From: Flavobacteriaceae bacterium
GTDB taxonomy: Bacteria > Bacteroidota > Bacteroidia > Flavobacteriales > Flavobacteriaceae
Assembly: GCA_965178655.1 (NCBI GenBank)
Contig: OZ238266.1
Location: forward strand, 1,578,295-1,642,294
DNA: 64,000 nt
Direction: 5' to 3'
The notes under the pieces were generated by a model, which was not told where the DNA came from, made no database searches, and saw only the letters and a list, made by a program, of their open reading frames with translations. A program made the position numbers and the translations under genes. Below are positions 8,744 through 42,195 of the stretch, one piece after another. Within the stretch, counting starts at the first letter, position 1; every line of letters begins with the position of its first letter.

Positions 8744-9586
8744 TTAAAATTCTAAGTTGAGGTTTAAGCTACTTTCAATGTTTTCGGCTGTAACATCTTC
8801 TCCTTTAAGAAGTGTATTGTTGGTATTAAACAGTTTCAAGTTGAGCACCCAGTATCCGGTCATGGTTAATGATAGATCACCATGGTAAAGTGTGTCGTTA
8901 ATAGAATAACTTAGATCTGTGTTGTTTGGTGAGCTATGATTTCCCATAGATGGCATACGTGGGTCTAGTGAAATACTATAATCACTTACCGGAGGAAAAG
9001 ACATCATGTTTTCCATTTTGTAAAGTCCTGCTGTTAATGAATTTACCCCTATTGTTGGGTTCTCAGGTGTAATTAGGGCAATAATATACTTAACATCATC
9101 ACTTCCCATAAATGTGGTTACATTTTTAGAAGCGTTTTGGTGAACAATAATTGTATCTTCAGCAGTATATGTAATATCGTTAATAGTATAGGTAAACGTA
9201 ATAGACCAGCCAGAGCCATCAGTTTCTGTCATTTGAAAAACCAATGTTCCGTGGTATAGGCTATTGGTGCCTTCTTTTCTGACAATTGTTGATTTTGGAC
9301 AAGAATGCGACATTGTTGTCATTTGCATAACAGGTATCCAATTGATGTTTGCGTCGTTAATGTAGCTTTCATCGCTATTGTTTTTTACTCGTATGGTAAT
9401 ATTGTTATGACCGGTATAAAAATTACCTGAAGAAGTGTAGAGTTCTAAGGTGTGTTCATCGGTAATAAACTCTTGTGCTTTTTGTAAGTTTTCCGTTTCA
9501 TTAATACTGAATACAGCATCATCATCAGTATCACATGAGATGAATAAGCTAGATATTAGGACTGGTATTATATATAAAAATTTCAT
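8744..9586 (-). CDS. Lipoprotein with two Met/His-rich motif modules (putative metal/copper binding)
   Basis: Lipobox SLFISCD. Two repeated modules: PVMQMTTMSHSCP...LYHGTLVFQMTETDGSGW and DPRMPSMGNHSSP...LYHGDLSLTMTGYW. Confidence 0.7.
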   Translation of the reverse strand: MKFLYIIPVLISSLFISCDTDDDAVFSINETENLQKAQEFITDEHTLELYTSSGNFYTGHNNITIRVKNNSDESYINDANINWIPVMQMTTMSHSCPKSTIVRKEGTNSLYHGTLVFQMTETDGSGWSITFTYTINDITYTAEDTIIVHQNASKNVTTFMGSDDVKYIIALITPENPTIGVNSLTAGLYKMENMMSFPPVSDYSISLDPRMPSMGNHSSPNNTDLSYSINDTLYHGDLSLTMTGYWVLNLKLFNTNNTLLKGEDVTAENIESSLNLNLEF

Positions 9587-9692
9587 TTGTTTTTATTTAA
9601 ATGTTAGAGGTAAGGAACGCTATTTTAAGCCATAGCAATCCTAGCTAAAAATGTTTTAGCGTGTTATTAGTTAATTTTTAATACTGGTAAAA

Positions 9693-10082
9693 TTAACTTG
9701 TTATAGGAGGAGGAATATCAAGCTCATAGTGCACATTAATTACATGATATGCGCTATGATCAATAATGAAGTTTTGTAGATATTGTTGCTTAGGAACAAC
9801 AACATCATTATTAGGTTGTATGTAAGCACATCTAAGTGTTTCAATAGAGATCTGCTGTAGGGGTATTTCTTGCTCTGCGGCAGAAGAAATGTTTAGCTTT
9901 TTTTTAAGTTGACATTTTCCGTTACATCCATTTTGAGCTTCTTTCTGTATACATAAGGTTTTTGCAATTTGTTCTTGGTTTACCACAAAATGTACTACAG
10001 TAACAATATTGCTAATGGCGTGTAAGCAAAGTATTAAGCTTAAGACAATGGCCTTAACGATATGTTTTTTAGCAGCGATCAT
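9693..10082 (-). CDS. Small membrane-anchored Cys-containing hypothetical protein
   Basis: 129 aa. N-terminal TM helix (AIVLSLILCLHAISNIV), then LCIQKEAQNGCNGKCQLKKKL. Located between nosY and the lipoprotein/TBDT genes. Confidence 0.55.
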   Translation of the reverse strand: MIAAKKHIVKAIVLSLILCLHAISNIVTVVHFVVNQEQIAKTLCIQKEAQNGCNGKCQLKKKLNISSAAEQEIPLQQISIETLRCAYIQPNNDVVVPKQQYLQNFIIDHSAYHVINVHYELDIPPPITS

Positions 10083-20348: not shown

Positions 20349-21557
20349 ATGATTTTAGAAATGAAAGTACCTTCACCAGGTGAATCAATTACAGAAGTAG
20401 AAATTGCAGAATGGCTAGTAGAAGACGGCGATTATGTTGAAAAAGACCAAGCAATTGCTGAAGTAGATTCCGACAAAGCAACCCTAGAATTACCTGCAGA
20501 AATGAGTGGTATTATTTCCCTAAAAGCAGAAGAAGGCGATGCCGTTGCCGTAGGTGAGGTAGTATGTTTAATAGATACAAGCGCCAAAGCTCCAGAAGGT
20601 AATAAGCCAGCTGAAGCAGCACCAAAAGCTGTAGAGAAGCCAGCAGCAACACCTGCGCCATCAGCTCCTAAAACAAGCTATGCTACAGGAACACCATCTC
20701 CAGCAGCTAAGAAAATCTTAGATGAAAAAGGAATGGACGCTACTGCAGTAACTGGTACCGGACGCGATGGTAGAGTAACCAAAGAAGATGCTGTAAAAGC
20801 AGTACCAGCAATGGGAACACCAACAGGAGGTTCTCGTGGTACTGGGCGTAAAAAAATGTCTATGTTACGCCGTAAGGTTGCAGAGCGTTTGGTAGAAGCA
20901 AAAAATACTACCGCAATGTTAACTACTTTTAACGAAGTAGATATGCAACCAATATTTAACTTACGTAGCGAATATAAAGAAACGTTTAAGACCAAACACG
21001 GTGTTGGATTAGGATTTATGTCATTCTTTTCAAAAGCAGTTGTAAGAGCATTAGAATTATACCCTGATGTTAACTCTATGATTGATGGTAAAGAAATGAT
21101 TACCTATGATTACTGCGACATTTCTATTGCTGTTTCTGGACCAAAAGGATTGATGGTACCCGTAATGCGTAACGCCGAAATGTTAACCTTTAGAGGTATA
21201 GAAGCCGAAATAAAACGATTGGCTATTAGAGCAAGAGACGGACAAATTACAGTTGATGATATGACAGGAGGAACCTTTACCATTTCTAACGGAGGGGTAT
21301 TTGGATCTATGATGTCTACACCAATTATTAACCCACCACAGTCTGGTATTTTAGGAATGCACAATATTATTAACCGCCCAGTTGTTGTAGATGGCGAAAT
21401 TGTAGCACGACCAATGATGTACCTTGCATTATCTTACGACCATAGAATTATTGATGGTAAAGAATCTGTAGGCTTTTTAGTAGCAATTAAAGAAGCATTA
21501 GAAAACCCGGTAGAACTATTGATGGATAACGATGTTAAAAAAGCATTAGAACTTTAA
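20349..21557 (+). CDS. sucB: Dihydrolipoyllysine-residue succinyltransferase (E2 of 2-oxoglutarate dehydrogenase)
   Basis: Lipoyl domain [13 protein letters not shown], an Ala/Pro linker, an E3-binding segment, catalytic [10 protein letters not shown]. Confidence 0.95.
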
Positions 21558-21582: not shown

Positions 21583-21608
21583 AGCCCTTGAGAAATCAAG
21601 GGCTTTTA
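21583..21608 (+). terminator. sucB terminator hairpin
   Basis: AGCCCTTGA-gaaa-TCAAGGGCT followed by TTTT. Overlaps the stop codon of the convergent ORF 21606..21905. Confidence 0.7.
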
Positions 21609-21905
21609 TTGTTGTAGGGTTTTTATTTCGTTTTCATATTCCGTTTGCTCTGGTGGGTAGTCCATTTTCACTCTTCTAATTATTTCTTCTCGATTATGAG
21701 CCCATTCAGGGTATTCAGTCCACTTTTTCTCATTTTTGAAATATATAACATTGAGCATTTTTCCAACAAGAATTTCTCTACTTATTTCAATTTTTTCCCA
21801 TTCGTTATTTATCTTCTCTTCATAATAGATTGAATCTCTTCCTAAAGGTCGGGTTCTCCATTTTCGTTTATTTTCTTTGATTTTACAGAGTTGGAATCGA
21901 ATCAA
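21606..21905 (-). CDS. Hypothetical small protein (99 aa), possibly 5'-truncated
   Basis: E/K/W-rich ORF. The only start at the 5' end is TTG, and the first ATG is 48 codons in. No family recognised. Confidence 0.4.
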   Translation of the reverse strand: MIRFQLCKIKENKRKWRTRPLGRDSIYYEEKINNEWEKIEISREILVGKMLNVIYFKNEKKWTEYPEWAHNREEIIRRVKMDYPPEQTEYENEIKTLQQ

Positions 21906-21998
21906 AAACCAAAAAAAGATAGGTTCTATAGAATAGGTGTTGGTTTTCCAGAATTAGTATATTTAGGAGGAGGAATACGGTTTTAATTTTTTGTCAAT

Positions 21999-22673
21999 TT
22001 AATTACATTTCGTGTTATAATATTCTACTATCTCAATAAGTCTTTTTTTCTTAAAATCATCATTGTCAATTTTGTTAATCAATTCGGTGCAATCTAAGAA
22101 GTATCTCTTTGCTGTTTTCTTAAAACTCTTAAAGATATTTACAAAGAACTCATTGCTAGCTATTTTTTCATCCTCTCTTTTTATGTACATATTTACGTAT
22201 TCATACGAATAATTATTCCCCCAATTTCCTGTATGCGTATTGAAAGTACTATTATTGACTCGAGATATAGCTTCATAAACTATAACCTTACCCTCTGCTA
22301 AAACCTTTAGTAGTTGTATCTTTTTTTTAGAGGTATAAACAGTAGCGTATTTTTCAACTTTTTTATCATTTTTAGTAATTGTAAATGAGGAAAAATCTTC
22401 TTTCTTATATTTTTTATTTTCTCCTTTTTTAGTCTTTTTATAAAAAACCTTATTTGTTTTGCTTCCAAGACCTGCCATTCCTTTGGTGGCACTCTCAAAC
22501 TTAAGCCATCCATTTAGTGTATCTCCACTATGGAGAACTAAATCGCCTTTATGCCATTTATTCGAAAATGTTCCATTTTTGCCAAAACTAATTTGAGAAT
22601 AAGTGTTGTTTGAAAAAAACACTAGTAGCCCTGTTGTTAACAAAGTTTTGATTCCAATTTTCATTCTGTGCAT
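21999..22673 (-). CDS. Secreted Lys-rich hypothetical protein (224 aa)
   Basis: Signal peptide ..LLVFFSNNTYSQ. ATG lies 23 nt downstream (minus sense) of repeat copy A. Confidence 0.6.
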   Translation of the reverse strand: MHRMKIGIKTLLTTGLLVFFSNNTYSQISFGKNGTFSNKWHKGDLVLHSGDTLNGWLKFESATKGMAGLGSKTNKVFYKKTKKGENKKYKKEDFSSFTITKNDKKVEKYATVYTSKKKIQLLKVLAEGKVIVYEAISRVNNSTFNTHTGNWGNNYSYEYVNMYIKREDEKIASNEFFVNIFKSFKKTAKRYFLDCTELINKIDNDDFKKKRLIEIVEYYNTKCN

Positions 22674-22696
22674 TTTTTAGGTTTAATTACTTATAT

Positions 22697-22825
22697 CGTG
22701 TTCGTGTATGGTTTGTTGCAGTTTTCAGGCTCTAAGTTAATAAATTAAGCTTTATCAGAGAAAATTCCAACGGAATTTTCGCAAGTGATTACTGTTTTAA
22801 GTAATTAATTATACACCGTGTTGGC
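22697..22825. repeat. Islet repeat copy A (~129 nt, structured)
   Basis: CGTGTTCGTGTATGGTTTGTTGC...GAAAATTCCaacGGAATTTTC...GTAATTAATTATACACCGTGTTGGC. About 6 mismatches to copy C over the first ~113 nt (hand alignment). Confidence 0.9.
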
Positions 22826-22862
22826 ATTAGTTATTGAATTTTTAATAAAAAAATAACATTTT

Positions 22863-22898
22863 GACGTAACGTCGTTTCGTTTATTTCGTTTACATTTG
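22863..22898 (+). promoter_or_regulatory. Candidate promoter/operator of the HTH-PIN operon
   Basis: Palindrome GACGTaACGTC (22863..22873), perfect tandem TTTCGTTTA x2 (22875..22892) and a Bacteroidetes-type -7 box TAcaTTTG (22891..22898). The ATG lies 27 nt downstream. Confidence 0.4.
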
Positions 22899-22924
22899 TA
22901 GTAACTGATGAAAACTTAAACAAA

Positions 22925-23380
22925 ATGGAATACTTTAACGACATAAAAAAACCTTCTAAAAAAGAGCAGATTGCTGCAATGGAATCATATAATGCTCTTG
23001 CTGCAACATTGGAAGAATTGCGTTCCGAAAACCCTGAAATAGAAATTGAGGAAACTTCTGAAAAGATTAAGATTCCTTTGAAGGCTCTTAAACTTTTAGC
23101 AAAAATGTTAAAGGCCACTAGTCAAGGTAAGCCGATTTCTTTAGTACCTATTGCGACTGAAATGACTACTCAAGCAGCAGCTGAGTTATTGGGTTGTTCG
23201 AGACCTCATTTTGTTAAATTACTTGAGAAAGGAAATATTCCTTTTACAATGGTTGGAAGGCATCGTAGGGTTAAATTTCAAGATGTAATGAAATATAAGA
23301 AAGAAATGAAATTGAAGCAGGAACAACACCTTATAGATTTAATGAAGTCTGATGAAGAATTAGGGTTATATGATTCATAG
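22925..23380 (+). CDS. Excisionase-type helix-turn-helix DNA-binding protein (putative antitoxin)
   Basis: C-terminal MTTQAAAELLGCSRPHFVKLLEKGNIPFTMVGRHRRVKFQDV resembles HTH_17/excisionase domains. 11-nt overlap with the PIN gene. Confidence 0.75.
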   Translation: MEYFNDIKKPSKKEQIAAMESYNALAATLEELRSENPEIEIEETSEKIKIPLKALKLLAKMLKATSQGKPISLVPIATEMTTQAAAELLGCSRPHFVKLLEKGNIPFTMVGRHRRVKFQDVMKYKKEMKLKQEQHLIDLMKSDEELGLYDS

Positions 23381-23933
23381 CGTACGTTTTACTTGTGTTC
23401 TTGACACTAATATTATTTATCCAATAGAAATCAGAGATTTATTGTTTTGGTTTGCACATTTTGATTTATTTACACCTAAATGGAGTAATCATATTTTTGA
23501 TGAATGGCAAGATGTGATGGATAGAAAAGGAGTAACAGAAGAAGAAATTAAGAAAAGAACCAATGTTGCAAATTTAGCCTTTCCAGATGCGCTTGTAATA
23601 AATTATGAGCCATTGATTGAAGGATTAACCTTGCCTGATGAAAAGGATAGACACGTACTTGCAGCTGCAATTAAAACAAATGCAAATGTAATTGTCACAA
23701 ACAATTTAAAAGATTTTCCAAAAGAATATTTGGCGTCTTTCGGATTAGTCGCAAAATCTGCTGATGATTTTATTGCAGATATAATTGATTTGAATCACGA
23801 AAAGGCGATAGAAGCTTTTAAAAAATTAGTCTTAAACAGAAGAAATCCAGATTTAGATGAGTACGAAGTTTTAGATAATTTAAGGAAGAATGGATTAAAT
23901 GACGCAGCTAATTACTTACATTCTTTGATTTAG
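23370..23933 (+). CDS. PIN-domain ribonuclease (putative toxin)
   Basis: VLDTNIIY, DEKDRHVLAAAI and VTNNLKDF occur in the order expected for PIN acidic residues. Translationally coupled to the upstream HTH gene. Confidence 0.75.
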   Translation: MIHSVRFTCVLDTNIIYPIEIRDLLFWFAHFDLFTPKWSNHIFDEWQDVMDRKGVTEEEIKKRTNVANLAFPDALVINYEPLIEGLTLPDEKDRHVLAAAIKTNANVIVTNNLKDFPKEYLASFGLVAKSADDFIADIIDLNHEKAIEAFKKLVLNRRNPDLDEYEVLDNLRKNGLNDAANYLHSLI

Positions 23934-23948
23934 CTGAATGTATTCCAT

Positions 23949-24076
23949 CGTGTTCATGTATGGTTTCTTGCGTTTTTAACGCTCTAAGTTAGCAAATAAA
24001 TCACAGATAGAAAGTCCGCGAGGACTTTCGTAAGTAAGCTAGAAATTAGCAATTAATTTTATACGGTGTTGTAAGC
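23949..24076. repeat. Islet repeat copy B (divergent copy)
   Basis: Left block matches copy C at 41/45 nt. The central hairpin is GAAAGTCCgcgaGGACTTTC. The right block is AGCAATTAATTTTATACGGTGTTGTAAGC. Its last ~18 nt encode the C-terminus and stop of the minus-strand nuclease gene. Confidence 0.85.
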
Positions 24077-24781
24077 TGGCTTTTCTATCCACTTTTTGAT
24101 TTCAGCCACAATTATATCTGTATTTTCATTAACGTCTTTTCCTGTATATCTTAAAACTTGAAATCCTAATTCTTGAAGTTTTCTGTCAATTCGTTTATCT
24201 CGTTGAGCTTGTTCTTCAGTTCTTTCGTGATATGTATGTCCATCTGTATAAACGCACAATTTCACGTCTCTTTTCTCGATATAAAAGTCCGCAACAGTTA
24301 GTACTTCTTTAAAGTTGTTTTTCGGATTGTTATATGATTTTCCTGCGATTGAAATATTCTCGCCTTTCCAATTCAAAGGATATTGGGCTTCAAATCGAAT
24401 ATATTTTTTGTTTAATGCAAGAAATAATTTTCTTTCGAGAGGACTTTGTAAATCGAAAATACAAGTCAGACAATGGTTTGATAATTTATAATCACAATTT
24501 TGGCAAAGTTTATCTTCTGCATAATGTTTGTCAATTATGTTTGCTTTGTCATTCGTAATGTCTAATTTTTCGGCAGTCGTGGTTGATTCTATTAATTCCG
24601 AAATTTCGTCACGTAACTTTGTTAATTCCTTTAGTCCACAACGAATAGTTTTTTTCCAATTCTGTCCTTTTTCGGTTACAGAAATTAGATATTCGGTCGT
24701 TTCCTTTTCAGAATTATCATCGCTTATTAAATTCCGATATATTTTTTTGATTTTTTCAAATTCGATTGGGATTCTTGCCAT
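24059..24781 (-). CDS. Zn-ribbon plus DUF559/Vsr-like (restriction-endonuclease-fold) nuclease domain protein
   Basis: CQNC-x7-CLTC cluster, then SPLERKLFLALNKK...VADFYIEKRDVKLCVYTDGHTYHERTEEQAQRDKRIDRKLQELGFQVLRYTGKDV, the DUF559-type pattern. The N-terminal ~90 aa are helical with no recognised family. Confidence 0.7.
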   Translation of the reverse strand: MARIPIEFEKIKKIYRNLISDDNSEKETTEYLISVTEKGQNWKKTIRCGLKELTKLRDEISELIESTTTAEKLDITNDKANIIDKHYAEDKLCQNCDYKLSNHCLTCIFDLQSPLERKLFLALNKKYIRFEAQYPLNWKGENISIAGKSYNNPKNNFKEVLTVADFYIEKRDVKLCVYTDGHTYHERTEEQAQRDKRIDRKLQELGFQVLRYTGKDVNENTDIIVAEIKKWIEKPAYNTV

Positions 24782-24823
24782 AGTTTATTTTCAGTTATTG
24801 TCGTTTCTTTAGCTTGCTTACAA

Positions 24824-24952
24824 CGTGTTCGTGTATGGTTTGTTGCGTTTTTCACGCTCTAAGTTAGTAAATTAAGCTTTATCAGAGAAAATTCCAGCGG
24901 AATTTTCGCAAGTGATTACTGTTTTAAGCAATTAATTATATGCGTTGTTGCC
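24824..24952. repeat. Islet repeat copy C
   Basis: Near-identical to copy A. Hairpins GCGTtttttcACGC and GAAAATTCCagcGGAATTTTC (24887..24907). Ends ..GCAATTAATTATATGCGTTGTTGCC. Confidence 0.9.
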
Positions 24953-24977
24953 ATTTCGTTGTTTATCAGAGTTCTAT

Positions 24978-25247
24978 CTATTCTTGTTCGGTTCTATTTC
25001 CTCCAAACATTAAAATTTCTATTTTCTCAGTATCTCTATCTCCAACAGGATTAGTTATTCCGATATATAACTCAGTCGTTGCACTTTCTGTTTCTGCTAC
25101 TAATTCTGTTTCGTCAGAATATTTTTCAAGTAATTTTTTCAATTCGCCAACAGTATTTAGTTGTTTGATATTTTTAATAAATATGCTTTCTTTCATTTTA
25201 AACTTGTTTTTTAATTTTATTCCGCAATATTTAGATTCTGTATTCAT
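24978..25247 (-). CDS. Hypothetical small acidic protein (89 aa)
   Basis: ORF with an ATG start and an alternative ATG 17 codons in. No family recognised. Confidence 0.45.
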   Translation of the reverse strand: MNTESKYCGIKLKNKFKMKESIFIKNIKQLNTVGELKKLLEKYSDETELVAETESATTELYIGITNPVGDRDTEKIEILMFGGNRTEQE

Positions 25248-25280
25248 TTCAGTTTTCAGACTTGCTTAAATTCCTATTAA

Positions 25281-25493
25281 TTATTTTCTTTTTTTCTTGA
25301 CATCTCTAATTGTAAATAGCATTGCTGAAACCAAAAGTATATTTGATACAATTCCAGCAAAAGGTCCTTTTTCAAGATTATCAAAATCAAGTTCAAAAAT
25401 GTTATAAATCATAAGCACAATACTTGTAATAATAATTAAGTATATAAAATAAATTTTTTTCAATTTTGGTTCAGTTTGAGTTTGTTCAGCCAA
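25281..25493 (-). CDS. Hypothetical small two-TM membrane protein (70 aa)
   Basis: Two hydrophobic helices and a KKKRK tail. Only a TTG start is available. Preceded by a 15-nt fragment of the islet repeat. Confidence 0.35.
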   Translation of the reverse strand: MAEQTQTEPKLKKIYFIYLIIITSIVLMIYNIFELDFDNLEKGPFAGIVSNILLVSAMLFTIRDVKKKRK

Positions 25494-26161
25494 TGAATGG
25501 CAATTAATTATACATAGAACTAGACTCCTCTTTGTTTAATTTACTGTCTTTTTTTAAAGGCAGTGAAATTTTATTAATAGAGTTACCCTTCCTTACAAAT
25601 ATACCTCTTATAAATCAGCTAAAAAACACCAAGTACTTGGTATTTTTTAAAACAACAAAAAAACATAACTAACTAGAATTCAGTAAAGTATGTTTTTTAT
25701 GTAAAAATTAGAAAATTTTAAAATGTCTAAAAACAATAGAAAATAGTAATCGGAATACTAAAAATAAAGTTGTTTTAAACACAACAGTATCTTTTTAAAA
25801 AAAGAGAGAGAGAAGTATTGTTAATTTACTGTTGTACTTTGTAAAAGCACCTGTTTAGCTTTGTGAATATACTAGTATATTTGCAGAAATTATCTAGTAT
25901 TTTTAATAAAATTATCTAGTATTTATTTATTTATAGAAATAGTACTATACTTATAAAACATAGTTAAACGCCCTTTAAAATAACGCTTGGTGGTAAGAGC
26001 TATAAATATACAAAAAAAAGTTCTAATAATGACTTTTATAGGAGGCTGTTGTAGTGCAAATTTTTATATTAAACACTTATAATAATAGCAGAGCTGTAGA
26101 GAAACAAAAACCAGACTTGTAAAACAAATCATTTTAAACAAGTTCTTGTTTTTTAATCACA

Positions 26162-28999
26162 CTAATGCGCTTCCAGCCAATTTAGACCGCTACCCAATTC
26201 CACATCTAGCGGAACAATCATTTTAAAAGCGTTTTCCATTTGTGTTTTTACCATGTTTTTTAACTGAATTTCTTCGGTTTTAGGCACATCAAAAACCAAT
26301 TCATCATGCACTTGTAAAAGCATTTTACTTTGGTAGTTTTCGGTATGTAATACTTTGTGTATGTTTATCATGGCCAATTTAATAATATCGGCAGCACTAC
26401 CTTGAATAGGTGCATTTACGGCATTTCGCTCATCGGCAGCACGTACAATTGCATTTTGAGAGTTAATGTTTTTTAAATAGCGCCTACGGTTTGATATGGT
26501 TTCTACATAGCCATGATCTCTAGCAAAATCTACCTGACCTGCCATATATGCTTTTAGCTTTGGGTAGGTTTTGTAATAATTATCTATAAGTGCTTTAGCT
26601 TCTTTACGGGGTATGTTTTGTTGTTGTGCAAGGGTAAAAGCACCTTGTCCGTAAATAATACCAAAATTAACAGCTTTAGCATTACTACGCTGCTCTCGTG
26701 TAACATCATTTAAAGGCACGTTAAATACTTTAGCGGCAGTGGCTGCATGAATATCTTCGCCGTTAATAAAAGACTCAATCATGCTTTCGTCTTTACTTAA
26801 GGCCGCAATAATACGCAGTTCAATTTGCGAGTAATCGGCAGCTACTAAAATGTGCTGCTCATCTCTAGGTACAAATGCTTTTCGCACTTGTTTACCGCGT
26901 TCAGTACGGATAGGTATGTTTTGTAAGTTAGGATTATTAGAGCTTAATCTTCCTGTAGCAGCAACCGCTTGATGGTAATCTGTATGTACCCGTTTTGTAT
27001 TAGGGTTTACCTGATTGGGTAGGGCATCTACATAAGTGTTTTGTAGTTTTATTAAACTACGCCACTTTAAAATATCTTGTATAATTTGATGCTCACCGAG
27101 TTTGCTAAGCACATCTTCGGAAGTAGAATACTGTCCGGTTTTTGTCTTTTTGGGTTTATCAACGAGTTTTAAATCTTCAAATAAAACAATACCCAGTTGT
27201 CTTGGCGATGCCAAATTAAACGTTTTATTAGCGGTAGTATAAATAGCTGTTTCAAGCGCTTTAATATCGGTAGATAAATCTGCCGATAGGCTATTTAAAA
27301 AAGTAACGTCTAGGTTAATACCTTCTAACTCCATAGCAGTTAATACAGGCACTAAAGGCATTTCTATAGTGTTGAATAATTGCTGGGTGCCTGTGTCTAA
27401 CAACTGTTTTTTAAATTGTTGTTTTAATTGAAAAACAAGGTCTGTTTGTTCTACAGCATAATTGGTTTGCTGTGTTAAATCAATCTCTTGTAATAGTTTT
27501 TGATTTTTACCTTTTTTACCAATAATACTATACAACTCAATAGTTTCATAGTTTAAATAGTTACTAGCCAAAACACTTAATCCGTGACGTGTGTCAGGGT
27601 TAATTAAGTAATGCGCTAGCGTAGTATCAAACATTGGTCCTTTTACTAAAATGCTATAGGCATCTAGTATTTTGCAAGTTGTTTTAGTATTGTGACTGAT
27701 TTTCTCGATAGCTTCGTTTTCAAAAAACGGACGCAAATCGTTTAAAAGTAATTGAGCGCTTTCTTGTGCTTTCGGAAAAGGAATATAGTATCCTTTATGG
27801 GCTTCCCAAGAAAATGCTATACCAATAATATGTGTTTCAAAAGCGTTTTGGGAGTAGGTTTCTATATGTACAGCAACGGCTGTTTGTTTTAGCAGTTGTT
27901 GTAAAAATAATTGCCTTGAAAAATCAGTATTAATATATTGATATACATGCGGACTGTTCTGTATGGTTTTATAACCATTATCTGCAAGCGCATCAGTATC
28001 ATTAGTATTGGCGCCAAATAATGAAAATTGTCCTTCTTCAGCGGTGTTTTTAGGTGTTTCTTTAGGTGCTTTGTTGGTGTCGTTAGTTGGTACAACAGTT
28101 TTAGCAACAGTATTGGTGTTGTAAATACGCTCAAAAGTTTGTTGTAGCCTTCTAAATTCAAGGGTTTTAAATAACGAGGTTACTTCAGCAGTATTCGGAC
28201 TCGATAATATAAACTCCGAAGCGTTAAAATTAACGGGGCAATCAAGTAGTATGGTAGCCAGTTTTTTTGACAACAAGCCAAGCTCGGCGTTGGCTTCTAC
28301 CTTTTCTTTCATTTTACCTTTTAAATCGGCAGTGTTTGCAAGTAAGTTTTCCATAGAGCCGTAGGCTTTTAAAAACTTTTTAGCAGTTTTATCGCCAACA
28401 CCAGGTAATCCAGGAATATTATCAACAGCATCTCCCATCATTCCTAAATAATCAATAACCTGTTCTGGGTGTTCTATTTCAAACTTTTTTTGAACCTCTG
28501 GTATTCCCCAAATTTCAATACCATTTCCCATTCTGGCAGGGCGATACATAAAAATATGTTCCGATACCAGTTGCGCAAAATCTTTATCTGGCGTAACCAT
28601 ATAAGTTGTAAACCCCTCTTTTTCGGCTTGTTTGGCAAGTGTTCCTATTAAGTCATCGGCTTCAAAACCAGCAACTTCTACTACCGGAATATCCATCGCT
28701 TTTAATAGCTGCTGTATATAAGGCACTGCAATTTTAATAGCTTCAGGTGTTTCTTGTCGGTTTGCTTTATACTCCGGAAACATATCGTTTCTAACATGAC
28801 TCCCGCCTTTGTCAAAACAAACGGCTAAATACTCAGGTTTTTCTTTTCGTAAAATTTCAAATAACGAATTGGTAAACCCCATTATAGCAGAAACATCCAT
28901 ACCCGTCGAGGTAATTCTTGGATTCTTAATAAGGGCATAGTAGCCTCTAAAAATTAATGCAAATGCATCTAAAAGGAATAGTCTTTTTGGTGTAGCCAT
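26162..28999 (-). CDS. polA: DNA polymerase I
   Basis: 945 aa. 5'-nuclease N-terminus, polymerase motifs DYSQIELR, RSNAKAVNFGIIYG and QVHDELVF. Confidence 0.97.
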   Translation of the reverse strand: MATPKRLFLLDAFALIFRGYYALIKNPRITSTGMDVSAIMGFTNSLFEILRKEKPEYLAVCFDKGGSHVRNDMFPEYKANRQETPEAIKIAVPYIQQLLKAMDIPVVEVAGFEADDLIGTLAKQAEKEGFTTYMVTPDKDFAQLVSEHIFMYRPARMGNGIEIWGIPEVQKKFEIEHPEQVIDYLGMMGDAVDNIPGLPGVGDKTAKKFLKAYGSMENLLANTADLKGKMKEKVEANAELGLLSKKLATILLDCPVNFNASEFILSSPNTAEVTSLFKTLEFRRLQQTFERIYNTNTVAKTVVPTNDTNKAPKETPKNTAEEGQFSLFGANTNDTDALADNGYKTIQNSPHVYQYINTDFSRQLFLQQLLKQTAVAVHIETYSQNAFETHIIGIAFSWEAHKGYYIPFPKAQESAQLLLNDLRPFFENEAIEKISHNTKTTCKILDAYSILVKGPMFDTTLAHYLINPDTRHGLSVLASNYLNYETIELYSIIGKKGKNQKLLQEIDLTQQTNYAVEQTDLVFQLKQQFKKQLLDTGTQQLFNTIEMPLVPVLTAMELEGINLDVTFLNSLSADLSTDIKALETAIYTTANKTFNLASPRQLGIVLFEDLKLVDKPKKTKTGQYSTSEDVLSKLGEHQIIQDILKWRSLIKLQNTYVDALPNQVNPNTKRVHTDYHQAVAATGRLSSNNPNLQNIPIRTERGKQVRKAFVPRDEQHILVAADYSQIELRIIAALSKDESMIESFINGEDIHAATAAKVFNVPLNDVTREQRSNAKAVNFGIIYGQGAFTLAQQQNIPRKEAKALIDNYYKTYPKLKAYMAGQVDFARDHGYVETISNRRRYLKNINSQNAIVRAADERNAVNAPIQGSAADIIKLAMINIHKVLHTENYQSKMLLQVHDELVFDVPKTEEIQLKNMVKTQMENAFKMIVPLDVELGSGLNWLEAH

Positions 29000-42121: not shown

Positions 42122-42195
42122 GGTCTGGTAGTTCAGCTGGTTAGAATACATGCCTGTCACGCATGGGGTCGCGGGTTCGAATCCCGTCCAGACCG
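42122..42195 (+). tRNA. tRNA-Asp (anticodon GTC)
   Basis: Hand-folded cloverleaf. Acceptor GGTCTGG/CCAGACC, anticodon stem CATGC/GCATG with loop CTGTCAC, T-arm GCGGG-TTCGAAT-CCCGT, 74 nt, no encoded CCA. Confidence 0.95.

Follow-up and report, generated by a model that had tools for sequence, protein, structure and literature searches.

Candidate attC-like repeats and an integron-like cassette system in the Flavobacteriaceae

The sucB-polA islet

The stretch of DNA considered here, referred to as the window, comprises 64,000 nucleotides of contig OZ238266.1 from a Flavobacteriaceae bacterium (GenBank assembly GCA_965178655.1, positions 1,578,295 to 1,642,294 of the forward strand). Between sucB (20349-21557, + strand) and polA (26162-28999, - strand), the window holds an islet of short genes with three direct copies, about 125 nt each, of a structured repeat, designated elements A, B and C. 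These repeats are likely to be attC-like sites of an integron-like cassette system that is native to the Flavobacteriaceae, employs a Xer-like recombinase, and is related to the rAID-1 system of Bacteroidales. The features of the islet are as follows, with positions counted from the first nucleotide of the window and element scores taken from a covariance model built from relatives.

21606..21905, - strand: small open reading frame (ORF) of 99 aa, no Pfam match, just beyond the variable segment and kept in a sister strain
21999..22673, - strand: ORF of 224 aa, no Pfam match, distal module of the variable segment (a 'secreted protein' in an earlier description), absent from the sister strain L050
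22695..22822, + strand: element A, attC-like (93.6 bits, E = 8e-18)
22925-23380, + strand: HTH_17 (excisionase-family) protein (Pfam E = 2e-10)
23370-23933, + strand: PIN_3 protein (Pfam E = 1e-9)
23947..24070, + strand: element B, diverged attC-like, left end ATC (95.3 bits, E = 4e-18)
24059..24781, - strand: cassette ORF of 240 aa with a C-terminal DUF559/restriction-endonuclease-like domain (Pfam PF04480, E = 7e-8)
24822..24949, + strand: element C, canonical attC-like (104.8 bits, E = 3e-20)
24978-25247 (89 aa) and 25281-25493 (70 aa, the earlier 'small membrane ORF'), - strand: two small ORFs of the proximal cassette, no Pfam match in either
25496..25513, + strand: boundary of the array on its proximal side, where AATGGC (25496-25501) leads into AAT and what is left of a terminal element, its right arm (T)GGCAATTAATTATAC

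Repeat and pattern searches allowing up to 3 mismatches returned exactly 3 matches in the window, against 0 expected from shuffles. The covariance model recovered A, B and C at E = 3e-20 to 8e-18, with no match better than E = 0.1 elsewhere in the 64 kb. A preliminary description of this stretch, made from the letters alone, had reported three co-oriented copies of about 129 nt, each at a gene boundary. Their number, orientation and placement are confirmed, the covariance-model limits lying two bases further left and falling a few bases shorter at the right, and the ORF list puts all three at gene boundaries. The sequence comparisons given at that time are also borne out in full: 6 of the first 113 nt distinguish A from C, and the left block of B matches C at 41 of 45 positions. 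B does retain, as had been described, a conserved right block and the central hairpin, the latter with bases changed in compensation (A and C have GAAAATTCC/GGAATTTTC where B has GAAAGTCC/GGACTTTC).

Element C runs from AAC-GTGTTC-GTGTATGGTTTGTTGC to GCAATTAATTATATGCGTTGTT, with the right flank GCCATT at 24950-24955. Element A begins with ATC-GTGTTC-GTGTATGGTTTGTTGC, where ATC replaces the usual AAC, and continues through the central hairpin to the right end GTAATTAATTATACACCGTGTT and the right flank GGCATT at 22823-22828. On the polA side, GGCAATTAATTATA at 25499-25512, which the preliminary description had overlooked, is all that remains, at its right end, of a fourth, terminal element; the sister strain L050 has this element in full. 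Read from polA, the first cassette consists of the two small ORFs followed by C, the second of the DUF559-domain ORF followed by B, whose right end overlaps the stop codon of that ORF (24059..24781), and the third of the HTH-PIN pair followed by A, after which comes one ORF without a site. The HTH-PIN cargo (22925..23933, +) is inverted relative to the other cassette ORFs.

Co-oriented arrays in related genomes

An exact scan with the 22-mer GTGTTCNTGTATGGTTTNTTGC, covering one genome per species, returned 45 stretches (L-numbers are the labels of retrieved loci), of which 44 come from Flavobacteriaceae genera or unclassified Bacteroidia; the genera include Psychroserpens, Winogradskyella, Aquimarina, Maribacter and Kordia. 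The remaining stretch, L045 from a Syntrophorhabdales genome, is devoid of elements and seems to match by chance, and an exact-pattern scan of viral contigs gave no match. The covariance model identified 184 copies in 46 loci, with up to 12 per 8 kb and a median copy-to-copy spacing of 729 nt. All copies of a locus lie on a single strand in 44 of the 45 loci with matches. The exception is L039, the sole locus of mixed orientation, where the right ends of two elements (231-461) are fused into a perfect palindrome, TATACAC|GTGTATA.

Of the 128 spacers between neighbouring copies that contain an ORF, 115 have their longest ORF antisense to the repeat (10 more spacers are ORF-free), and spacer ORFs have a median length of 186 aa. 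In gene orientation, an element follows each ORF, and the next ORF begins ~15-20 nt past the element. Given that the repeats come after the cassette ORFs, on the antisense strand, the mobile promoter or leader module that the preliminary description offered as an alternative is unsupported. A promoter with a riboswitch-like leader, first suggested by the upstream 'AATTG/AATG' and by TATGGTTTG, was dropped as well, since every long-interior copy also has the right end and the upstream motif is a cassette-specific flank.

Every copy carries the conserved left end AAC-GTGTTC-GTGTATGGTTTGTTGC and the conserved right end GCAATGAAYTATACAC-GTT-GTT. Element interiors fall into several unrelated types, and the elements as a whole measure 90-240 nt. 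Pfam searches of 115 cassette ORFs from the Flavobacteriaceae arrays identified DUF6090 (7), RDD (4) and beta-lactamase fold (3) proteins, with AbiH, GNAT and SDR as single cases. An immunity family (WapI) was found in only 1 of the 115, and the majority have no Pfam match. Relatives carry the same-orientation arrays of short unrelated ORFs that the preliminary description had named as a check, and the scattered, randomly oriented copies that it would have attributed to a generic repetitive extragenic palindromic (REP) sequence or a miniature inverted-repeat transposable element (MITE) were not seen.

Complementary flanks at cassette junctions

The 6 nt that follow the terminal GTT of one element are the reverse complement of the 6 nt that precede the AAC of the next. 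Among 141 neighbouring pairs, this complementarity is 6/6 in 98 and at least 5/6 in 118, compared with 1.06% and 4.7%, respectively, for control flank pairs taken from different loci. By inspection, pairing seems to extend to ~12 nt, often with a same-strand G·T at position 8. The complementary flanks bracket the ORF between two elements, and the two flanks of any one element are unrelated to each other. Target-site duplications are absent, an element's own flanks agreeing on average at 2.4 of 7 positions, as in random sequence.

The rule can be followed in the window, where the B-to-C junction matches at 6/6 (GTAAGC at 24071-24076 versus GCTTAC at 24816-24821), and where the right flank of C, GCCATT, is the reverse complement of the AATGGC (25496-25501) at the array boundary. 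Such a signature is what site-specific recombination at an AAC/GTT core would leave. It also reproduces the composite junction of integrons, in which the bases after G|TT pair with the R'' of the next cassette. The preliminary statement that the repeat ends do not match the attC R''/R' consensus needs correction: the AAC...GTT core is present beside cassette-specific bases. The neighbouring bases fit RYYYAAC/GTTRRRY only loosely.

Hairpin structure and strand asymmetry

Single window copies folded alone gave weak z-scores (-0.4 to -2.6), and the structure consequently became visible by comparative analysis only. For this analysis, 19 proposed pairs, consisting of AAC with the terminal GTT and a 16-bp stem, were tested on both ends of 69 distinct copies. 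Paired bases occupy 93% of the cells, with changes on both sides at 9 of the 19 pairs, and none of 500 shuffles reached any of five pairing measures. Shifting the partner column by 1-3 positions lowered pairing to 25-50%.

The site that emerges has an outer box in which N6-AAC pairs with GTT-N6', an asymmetric internal loop with GTGTTC opposite GTT, a covarying 16-bp stem in which GTGTATGGTTTGTTGC pairs with GCAATGAACTATACAC, and a variable interior of ~60-180 nt that also tends to form hairpins. As in the attC sites of integrons, this is an imperfect hairpin with an AAC...GTT core, an unpaired central (internal) loop, a second stem, here covarying, and a variable terminal structure. The cassette-specific box, however, is 6-12 nt long rather than the 4 nt of integrons, and regular extrahelical bases are absent. 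Rfam 15 yielded no family at the repeats, either in the window, at gathering and at permissive thresholds, or in 18 related loci.

Three positions of the stem carry fixed G·U (G·T) wobbles, which turn into C·A mismatches on the complement. As a result, the element's own strand is the more stable one: RNA parameters show this for 175 of 183 copies (by a mean of 8.3 kcal/mol) and DNA parameters for 168 of 183 (by a mean of 2.5 kcal/mol). The better-folding strand is antisense to the cassette genes and would be termed the 'bottom' strand in integrons, where the gene-antisense strand likewise folds better. As only the bottom strand folds well through the conserved wobbles, we infer a folded single-stranded substrate, as in integrons. 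Since the conserved ends covary in a stem and the junction rule holds, the repeats are, to judge from sequence, attC-like recombination sites.

A linked tyrosine recombinase and an attI-like site

Clustering of the long ORFs in the loci found through the repeat identified a tyrosine recombinase in 4 of the 45. Conversely, in the loci found through the recombinase, a co-oriented short-ORF array lies directly downstream in 7 of 7, and all 36 of 36 covariance-model matches in these loci are downstream of the recombinase gene and antisense to it. The recombinase is 376 aa in length and retains the catalytic R-K-H-R-H-Y residues in the family alignment; members from many genera share 66-75% identity with the L010 query. 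Past its stop codon, ~70 nt are conserved in eight genera and end in an invariant GTT that is followed by a variable N6. Where checked, the N6 of this attI-like region pairs with the first cassette's own element (GTGTTT/AAACAC in L048, GTGCTT in L010).

The enzyme was compared with Xer proteins and integron integrases. Its score against NF040815 ('XerA / integron integrase') is 212-230 bits, around the cut-off of 220, and its score against TIGR02249 (IntI) is 204-214 bits, below the cut-off of 265 and with the match in two separate stretches. At the position of the IntI-specific domain, the recombinase has 18 residues (query 282-300) versus 61 in VchIntIA (2A3V residues 185-246 skipped), and the corresponding insertion is not seen in the recombinase family alignment. 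The scores of the enzyme against XerA, XerC and XerD are as good as that against IntI, and XerA heads its sequence matches in both PDB and NCBIfam. The closest solved folds are VchIntIA and archaeal XerA, effectively tied, and the NCBI name of the linked recombinase is 'tyrosine recombinase/integron integrase'. An AlphaFold model (mean pLDDT 80) predicts an extra folded alpha/beta domain at residues 1-75.

An ORF of ~125-130 aa with no Pfam match lies divergently upstream of the recombinase gene in 6 of 7 genomes (at about 9500-9916, - strand, in L046-L048, L052, L053 and L055; missing in L054). It may represent a partner or a regulator.

Strain comparison and cassette turnover

The sister strain L050 is represented by a 119-kb metagenome contig that encodes an identical SucB and whose flanks are 98.2-98.5% identical to the window. 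Between these flanks, the segment at 21909-25497 of the window (3589 bp) is replaced in L050 by 1437 bp, in which another ORF is accompanied by a decayed element and an intact terminal one. Homology runs to 21908 and resumes at 25498; on the right, the difference thus ends at the predicted junction AATGGC|AAT. The ORF at 21606-21905, conserved in L050, would accordingly be a flank or a fixed last gene. A second case involves the same 190-aa cassette ORF in two genera (L001 731-1369 and L018 1288-1930, 89% nucleotide identity), where homology begins precisely at GTT|GGCAAAC, spans the ORF and ends at GCC|AAC.

The preliminary description had proposed an integron- or rAID-like cassette array served by an unseen recombinase, and had named relatives, a recombinase linked to other arrays, and strain differences in the sucB-polA interval as the places to look. 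Support for the proposal comes from all three, including interval content that differs between the near-identical strains.

Relation to integrons and rAID-1

Integrons are the textbook gene-capture device, yet they have scarcely been reported in Bacteroidetes; the IntegronFinder 2.0 survey lists a single complete integron in this group, in Salinibacter (PMC9024848). The arrays described here share with integrons a module made of a single, mostly promoterless ORF with a structured site behind it, bases after GTT that pair with the next cassette's own site, sites that are alike within one genome, the occurrence of recombinase-less arrays, and a presumed toxin-antitoxin cassette in reverse orientation. 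They differ in the recombinase, which lacks the additional domain of IntI and has an extra N-terminal alpha/beta domain, and in the position of its gene, which is co-oriented with the cassettes and has the attI-like site past its stop codon. An IntI-type integrase with the additional domain, and an attI at the 5' end of a divergent intI, are the two integron hallmarks that the system lacks.

The rAID-1 (recombinase-associated acquired interbacterial defence) arrays of Bacteroidales consist of a 5' XerD-like recombinase gene followed by co-directional, low-GC short genes, with intergenic repeats 'reminiscent of integrons' (Ross et al. 2019, 10.1101/471110). They are defined by a recombinase at least 44% identical to BF9343_RS08045, at least 2 co-directional genes directly downstream of it, an array GC content of at most 41% that is below that of the surroundings, conserved repetitive intergenic motifs, and a cargo of orphan interbacterial immunity genes; homologues of the recombinase that are >50% identical occur only in Bacteroidales (10.1101/471110). 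The window islet is similarly low in GC (29.5%, versus 36.5% in sucA-sucB and 36.3% in polA). Co-directional genes downstream of a recombinase are found at 7 of 7 Flavobacteriaceae recombinase loci, although not in the window, which has no recombinase.

For comparison, the recombinase of a B. ovatus array carrying the immunity genes SMI1/KNR4, Imm26, PoNe/PoNi and Tdi1 was used as a proxy for BF9343_RS08045. This enzyme is 42% identical to the Flavobacteriaceae recombinase over 366 aa, N-terminal region included, and has no IntI insertion. The ~70-nt repeats of the B. ovatus array follow the junction rule in the form CATTA|N6 ... N6'|TAAC, with 9/9 complementarity in 3 of 11 junctions and 8/9 in 4 of 11; most of the others involve truncated repeats. 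The two repeat families are nevertheless distinct, as the covariance model has no match in the B. ovatus array. In common with rAID-1, the Flavobacteriaceae system has a conserved motif past the recombinase stop codon, co-oriented short low-GC genes and hairpin-forming intergenic repeats. It differs in host order (Flavobacteriales), in repeats of unrelated sequence and two to three times the length (118-240 nt versus ~70 nt), in core trinucleotides (AAC/GTT rather than the TAA/TTA of the rAID-1-type B. ovatus array), and in a cargo that is mostly unknown or miscellaneous (for instance, AbiH, nucleases and a presumed toxin-antitoxin pair) and not predominantly immunity genes. The window itself carries the HTH-PIN pair, the DUF559-domain ORF and unknowns in place of immunity cargo.

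Other known systems are more distant. Polyimmunity loci consist of tandem, co-oriented small genes that vary between strains and are sometimes found beside a Xer-like recombinase (Zhang et al. 2012, PMC3482391); they are defined by immunity content, with no recombination sites described, whereas immunity families are rare here (1 WapI in 115).

Hairpins that are unpaired in their central region do serve simple Xer-type tyrosine recombinases as substrates, as in the case of CTX phage attP(+) and XerCD. Unlike the arrays considered here, CTX attP(+)/XerCD and XerA/dif resolve dimers or integrate phage at dif, and build no multi-cassette arrays.

The Flavobacteriaceae system is best placed as a variant of the same Bacteroidota cassette platform as rAID-1, and is neither a canonical integron nor rAID-1 by the published criteria. 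No description of Flavobacteriaceae cassette arrays was found in the literature. The system reaches further than had been thought, into abundant marine Flavobacteriaceae and plasmids of other Bacteroidota: recombinases 41-46% identical head short-ORF arrays with AAC/GTT-type junctions on Chryseobacterium and Chondrinema plasmids. The junction rule defines cassette boundaries, the core crossover region AAC/GTT (or TAA/TTA), the folding strand and the attI-like site, and together with the covariance model could serve to annotate such cassettes. The mode of rAID-1 assembly was still 'an area of active research' in 2025 (PMC12247911), and the rule, which is also valid in the B. ovatus array, provides a concrete and testable model for it.

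Proposed mechanism and alternative explanations

In the proposed mechanism, the 376-aa Xer/IntI-like tyrosine recombinase would exchange strands at the AAC/GTT core of a folded single (bottom) strand, and each ORF module would thereby keep its own 6-12-nt inverted flank pair. Cassettes would enter at the conserved attI-like site just past the recombinase stop codon, and would also build up in recombinase-less satellite arrays that are served in trans. As there is no recombinase in the window, the sucB-polA array would be one such satellite of the Flavobacteriaceae cassette platform. Having three sites but lacking a tyrosine recombinase throughout the 64 kb, it would correspond, by analogy, to the class known in integrons as a cluster of attC sites lacking integron integrases (CALIN), defined by at least two sites and no integrase nearby. 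Catalysis by this recombinase, the exact crossover point, folding of the substrate as a single strand and action in trans on the window array are all points that we infer.

Several observations weigh against this account. The window contains no tyrosine recombinase, not even as a weak tblastn match in 64 kb, in keeping with the preliminary finding that no integrase is in the window, and action in trans on its array is assumed. Recombination is read from sequence, with no excised circle or other product observed. Elements A and B have ATC where the family has AAC, the A-to-B junction agrees at 4/6 only, and the array has one ORF module more than it has elements, the ORF at 21999-22673 being without its own site; given the ATC cores of A and B, part of the array may be inactive or fossil. 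In addition, the HTH-PIN pair occurs in three other loci (L058 4886-6009, L059 and L060) with no elements nearby, L058 having a vestigial right end only (AAATTATTTATAATGTT|AGCATT). The outer AAC/GTT and AACGTGT/ACACGTT registers pair equally well, and the crossover may lie in either. Finally, the interiors of both elements beside the L001/L018 cassette differ, and ORF modules and site interiors are consequently not inherited together. A cassette that carries its own attC, as in the strict integron model, does not predict this pattern, which sets this shared cassette apart from those of integrons and requires gene conversion between elements or crossovers at both element ends. The crossover could not be assigned to one end of the element: the shared cassette agrees neither with a unit of ORF and downstream site nor with one of upstream site and ORF.

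The alternative that survives best, although we consider it unlikely, accepts the same cassette system but proposes classical duplex recombination at inverted AACGTGT/ACACGTT cores, in the manner of Xer/dif, of integrative mobile elements exploiting Xer (IMEX) or of shufflons, with the hairpin as a by-product. A recombinase that lacks the IntI insertion, which reads the extrahelical bases of folded attC, and that matches XerA, XerC and XerD as well as IntI is suggestive of such a reaction. The TATACAC|GTGTATA fusion in L039 hints at the same, since its sequence resembles what a crossover at AC^GT within an ACACGTT/AACGTGT core would produce and is the leftover expected of that crossover in a duplex. 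However, covariation keeps 16 bp paired, well past a recombinase half-site, and the variable interior tends to form hairpins too. Nor would duplex sites select for three fixed G·T wobbles and a strand asymmetry seen in ~92-96% of copies.

It is far less probable that the islet is a genuine integron array, a CALIN with true attC sites whose canonical IntI lies elsewhere in the genome. The layout agrees with this possibility, in its AAC/GTT core, cassette-specific R box and promoterless co-oriented ORFs, as does the integron-integrase label that NCBI gives to the linked recombinase. The recombinase that actually heads the arrays nevertheless falls below the TIGR02249 cut-off with a split match and has 18 residues in place of the 61 of VchIntIA at the IntI-specific domain, the attI-like site lies behind the stop codon of a gene co-oriented with the cassettes, and the Salinibacter integron is the one complete case in the published survey of Bacteroidetes (PMC9024848).

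Equally improbable are non-recombining intergenic structures, whether repeats like REP sequences or bacterial interspersed mosaic elements (BIMEs), terminators or insulators, or genes for small antisense RNAs. The elements are indeed hairpin-rich, strictly intergenic and strand-asymmetric, and an RNA made from the repeat strand could use the G·U pairs, but the mRNA of a cassette would bear the poorly folding strand and no Rfam family matches. Such structures also leave unexplained the flank complementarity across a whole 500-1000-nt ORF, the fixed linkage to a recombinase and attI-like site, and the strain-specific replacement bounded by junctions.

MITEs inserting between genes would account for the imperfect terminal inverted repeats, the many copies per genome and the variable interiors, but can scarcely be credited given flanks that match no better than random with no target-site duplications, uniform orientation inside arrays (44 of 45 loci), and clustered rather than dispersed copies, with all three of those in 64 kb being in one islet.

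A broader and more tentative idea, to which we give somewhat less than even weight, is that Bacteroidota possess a phylum-wide second lineage of integron-like gene capture. This lineage would combine an insertion-free Xer/IntI-like recombinase that has the extra N-terminal domain, folded single-stranded hairpin sites, an attI behind the recombinase's own gene and satellites served in trans, and rAID-1 would be only its gut branch. If true, the IntI-specific domain is dispensable for folded-site recombination, and cassette capture either arose twice or is older than that domain.

Additional features of the arrays and the window

The HTH-PIN pair of the window is presumed to be a toxin-antitoxin module and appears to have its own promoter-like sequence, TACATTTG at 22891-22898, which we liken to TAnnTTTG, taken here to be the Bacteroidetes -7 promoter box. 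The pair is very widespread: many Flavobacteriaceae genera encode the HTH protein at 77-95% identity, and a Fulvivirga metagenome-assembled genome is represented in its 90%-identity cluster.

Insertion sequences of the IS110 and IS3 families lie in or beside arrays (L054 15954-16919, L055 12436-13658, L056 12257-13258 and L057 247-1239) and break the regular cassette spacing. A group II intron reverse transcriptase gene (ltrA) lies antisense in the recombinase-headed arrays of L056 (14723-16039, -) and L057 (8708-9988, -), which are two unrelated plasmids from Chryseobacterium and Chondrinema. Group IIC introns target the attC sites of integrons, and by analogy, the presence of ltrA in these arrays would fit repeats that form single-stranded stem-loops.

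Just upstream of sucA-sucB in L050 (1-5766) are genes for NosD, NosL, nos_propeller, cytochrome c and fasciclin proteins (nitrous-oxide reductase accessory functions). The same Nos cluster is found ~4 kb upstream of the recombinase-headed array in Gaetbulibacter (L054 1-6176), which may be a coincidence.

GC skew is positive in 8 of 8 8-kb bins of the window (+0.08 overall), so that the G-rich + strand is also the folding strand of the elements. The + strand is probably the lagging-strand template, in which case the cassette genes would be transcribed against replication. Replication orientation was set aside as evidence, the corresponding rule for integrons being uncertain to us. The sole Rfam match at gathering threshold in the window is a tRNA gene at 42122-42195 (+), which is unrelated to the islet.

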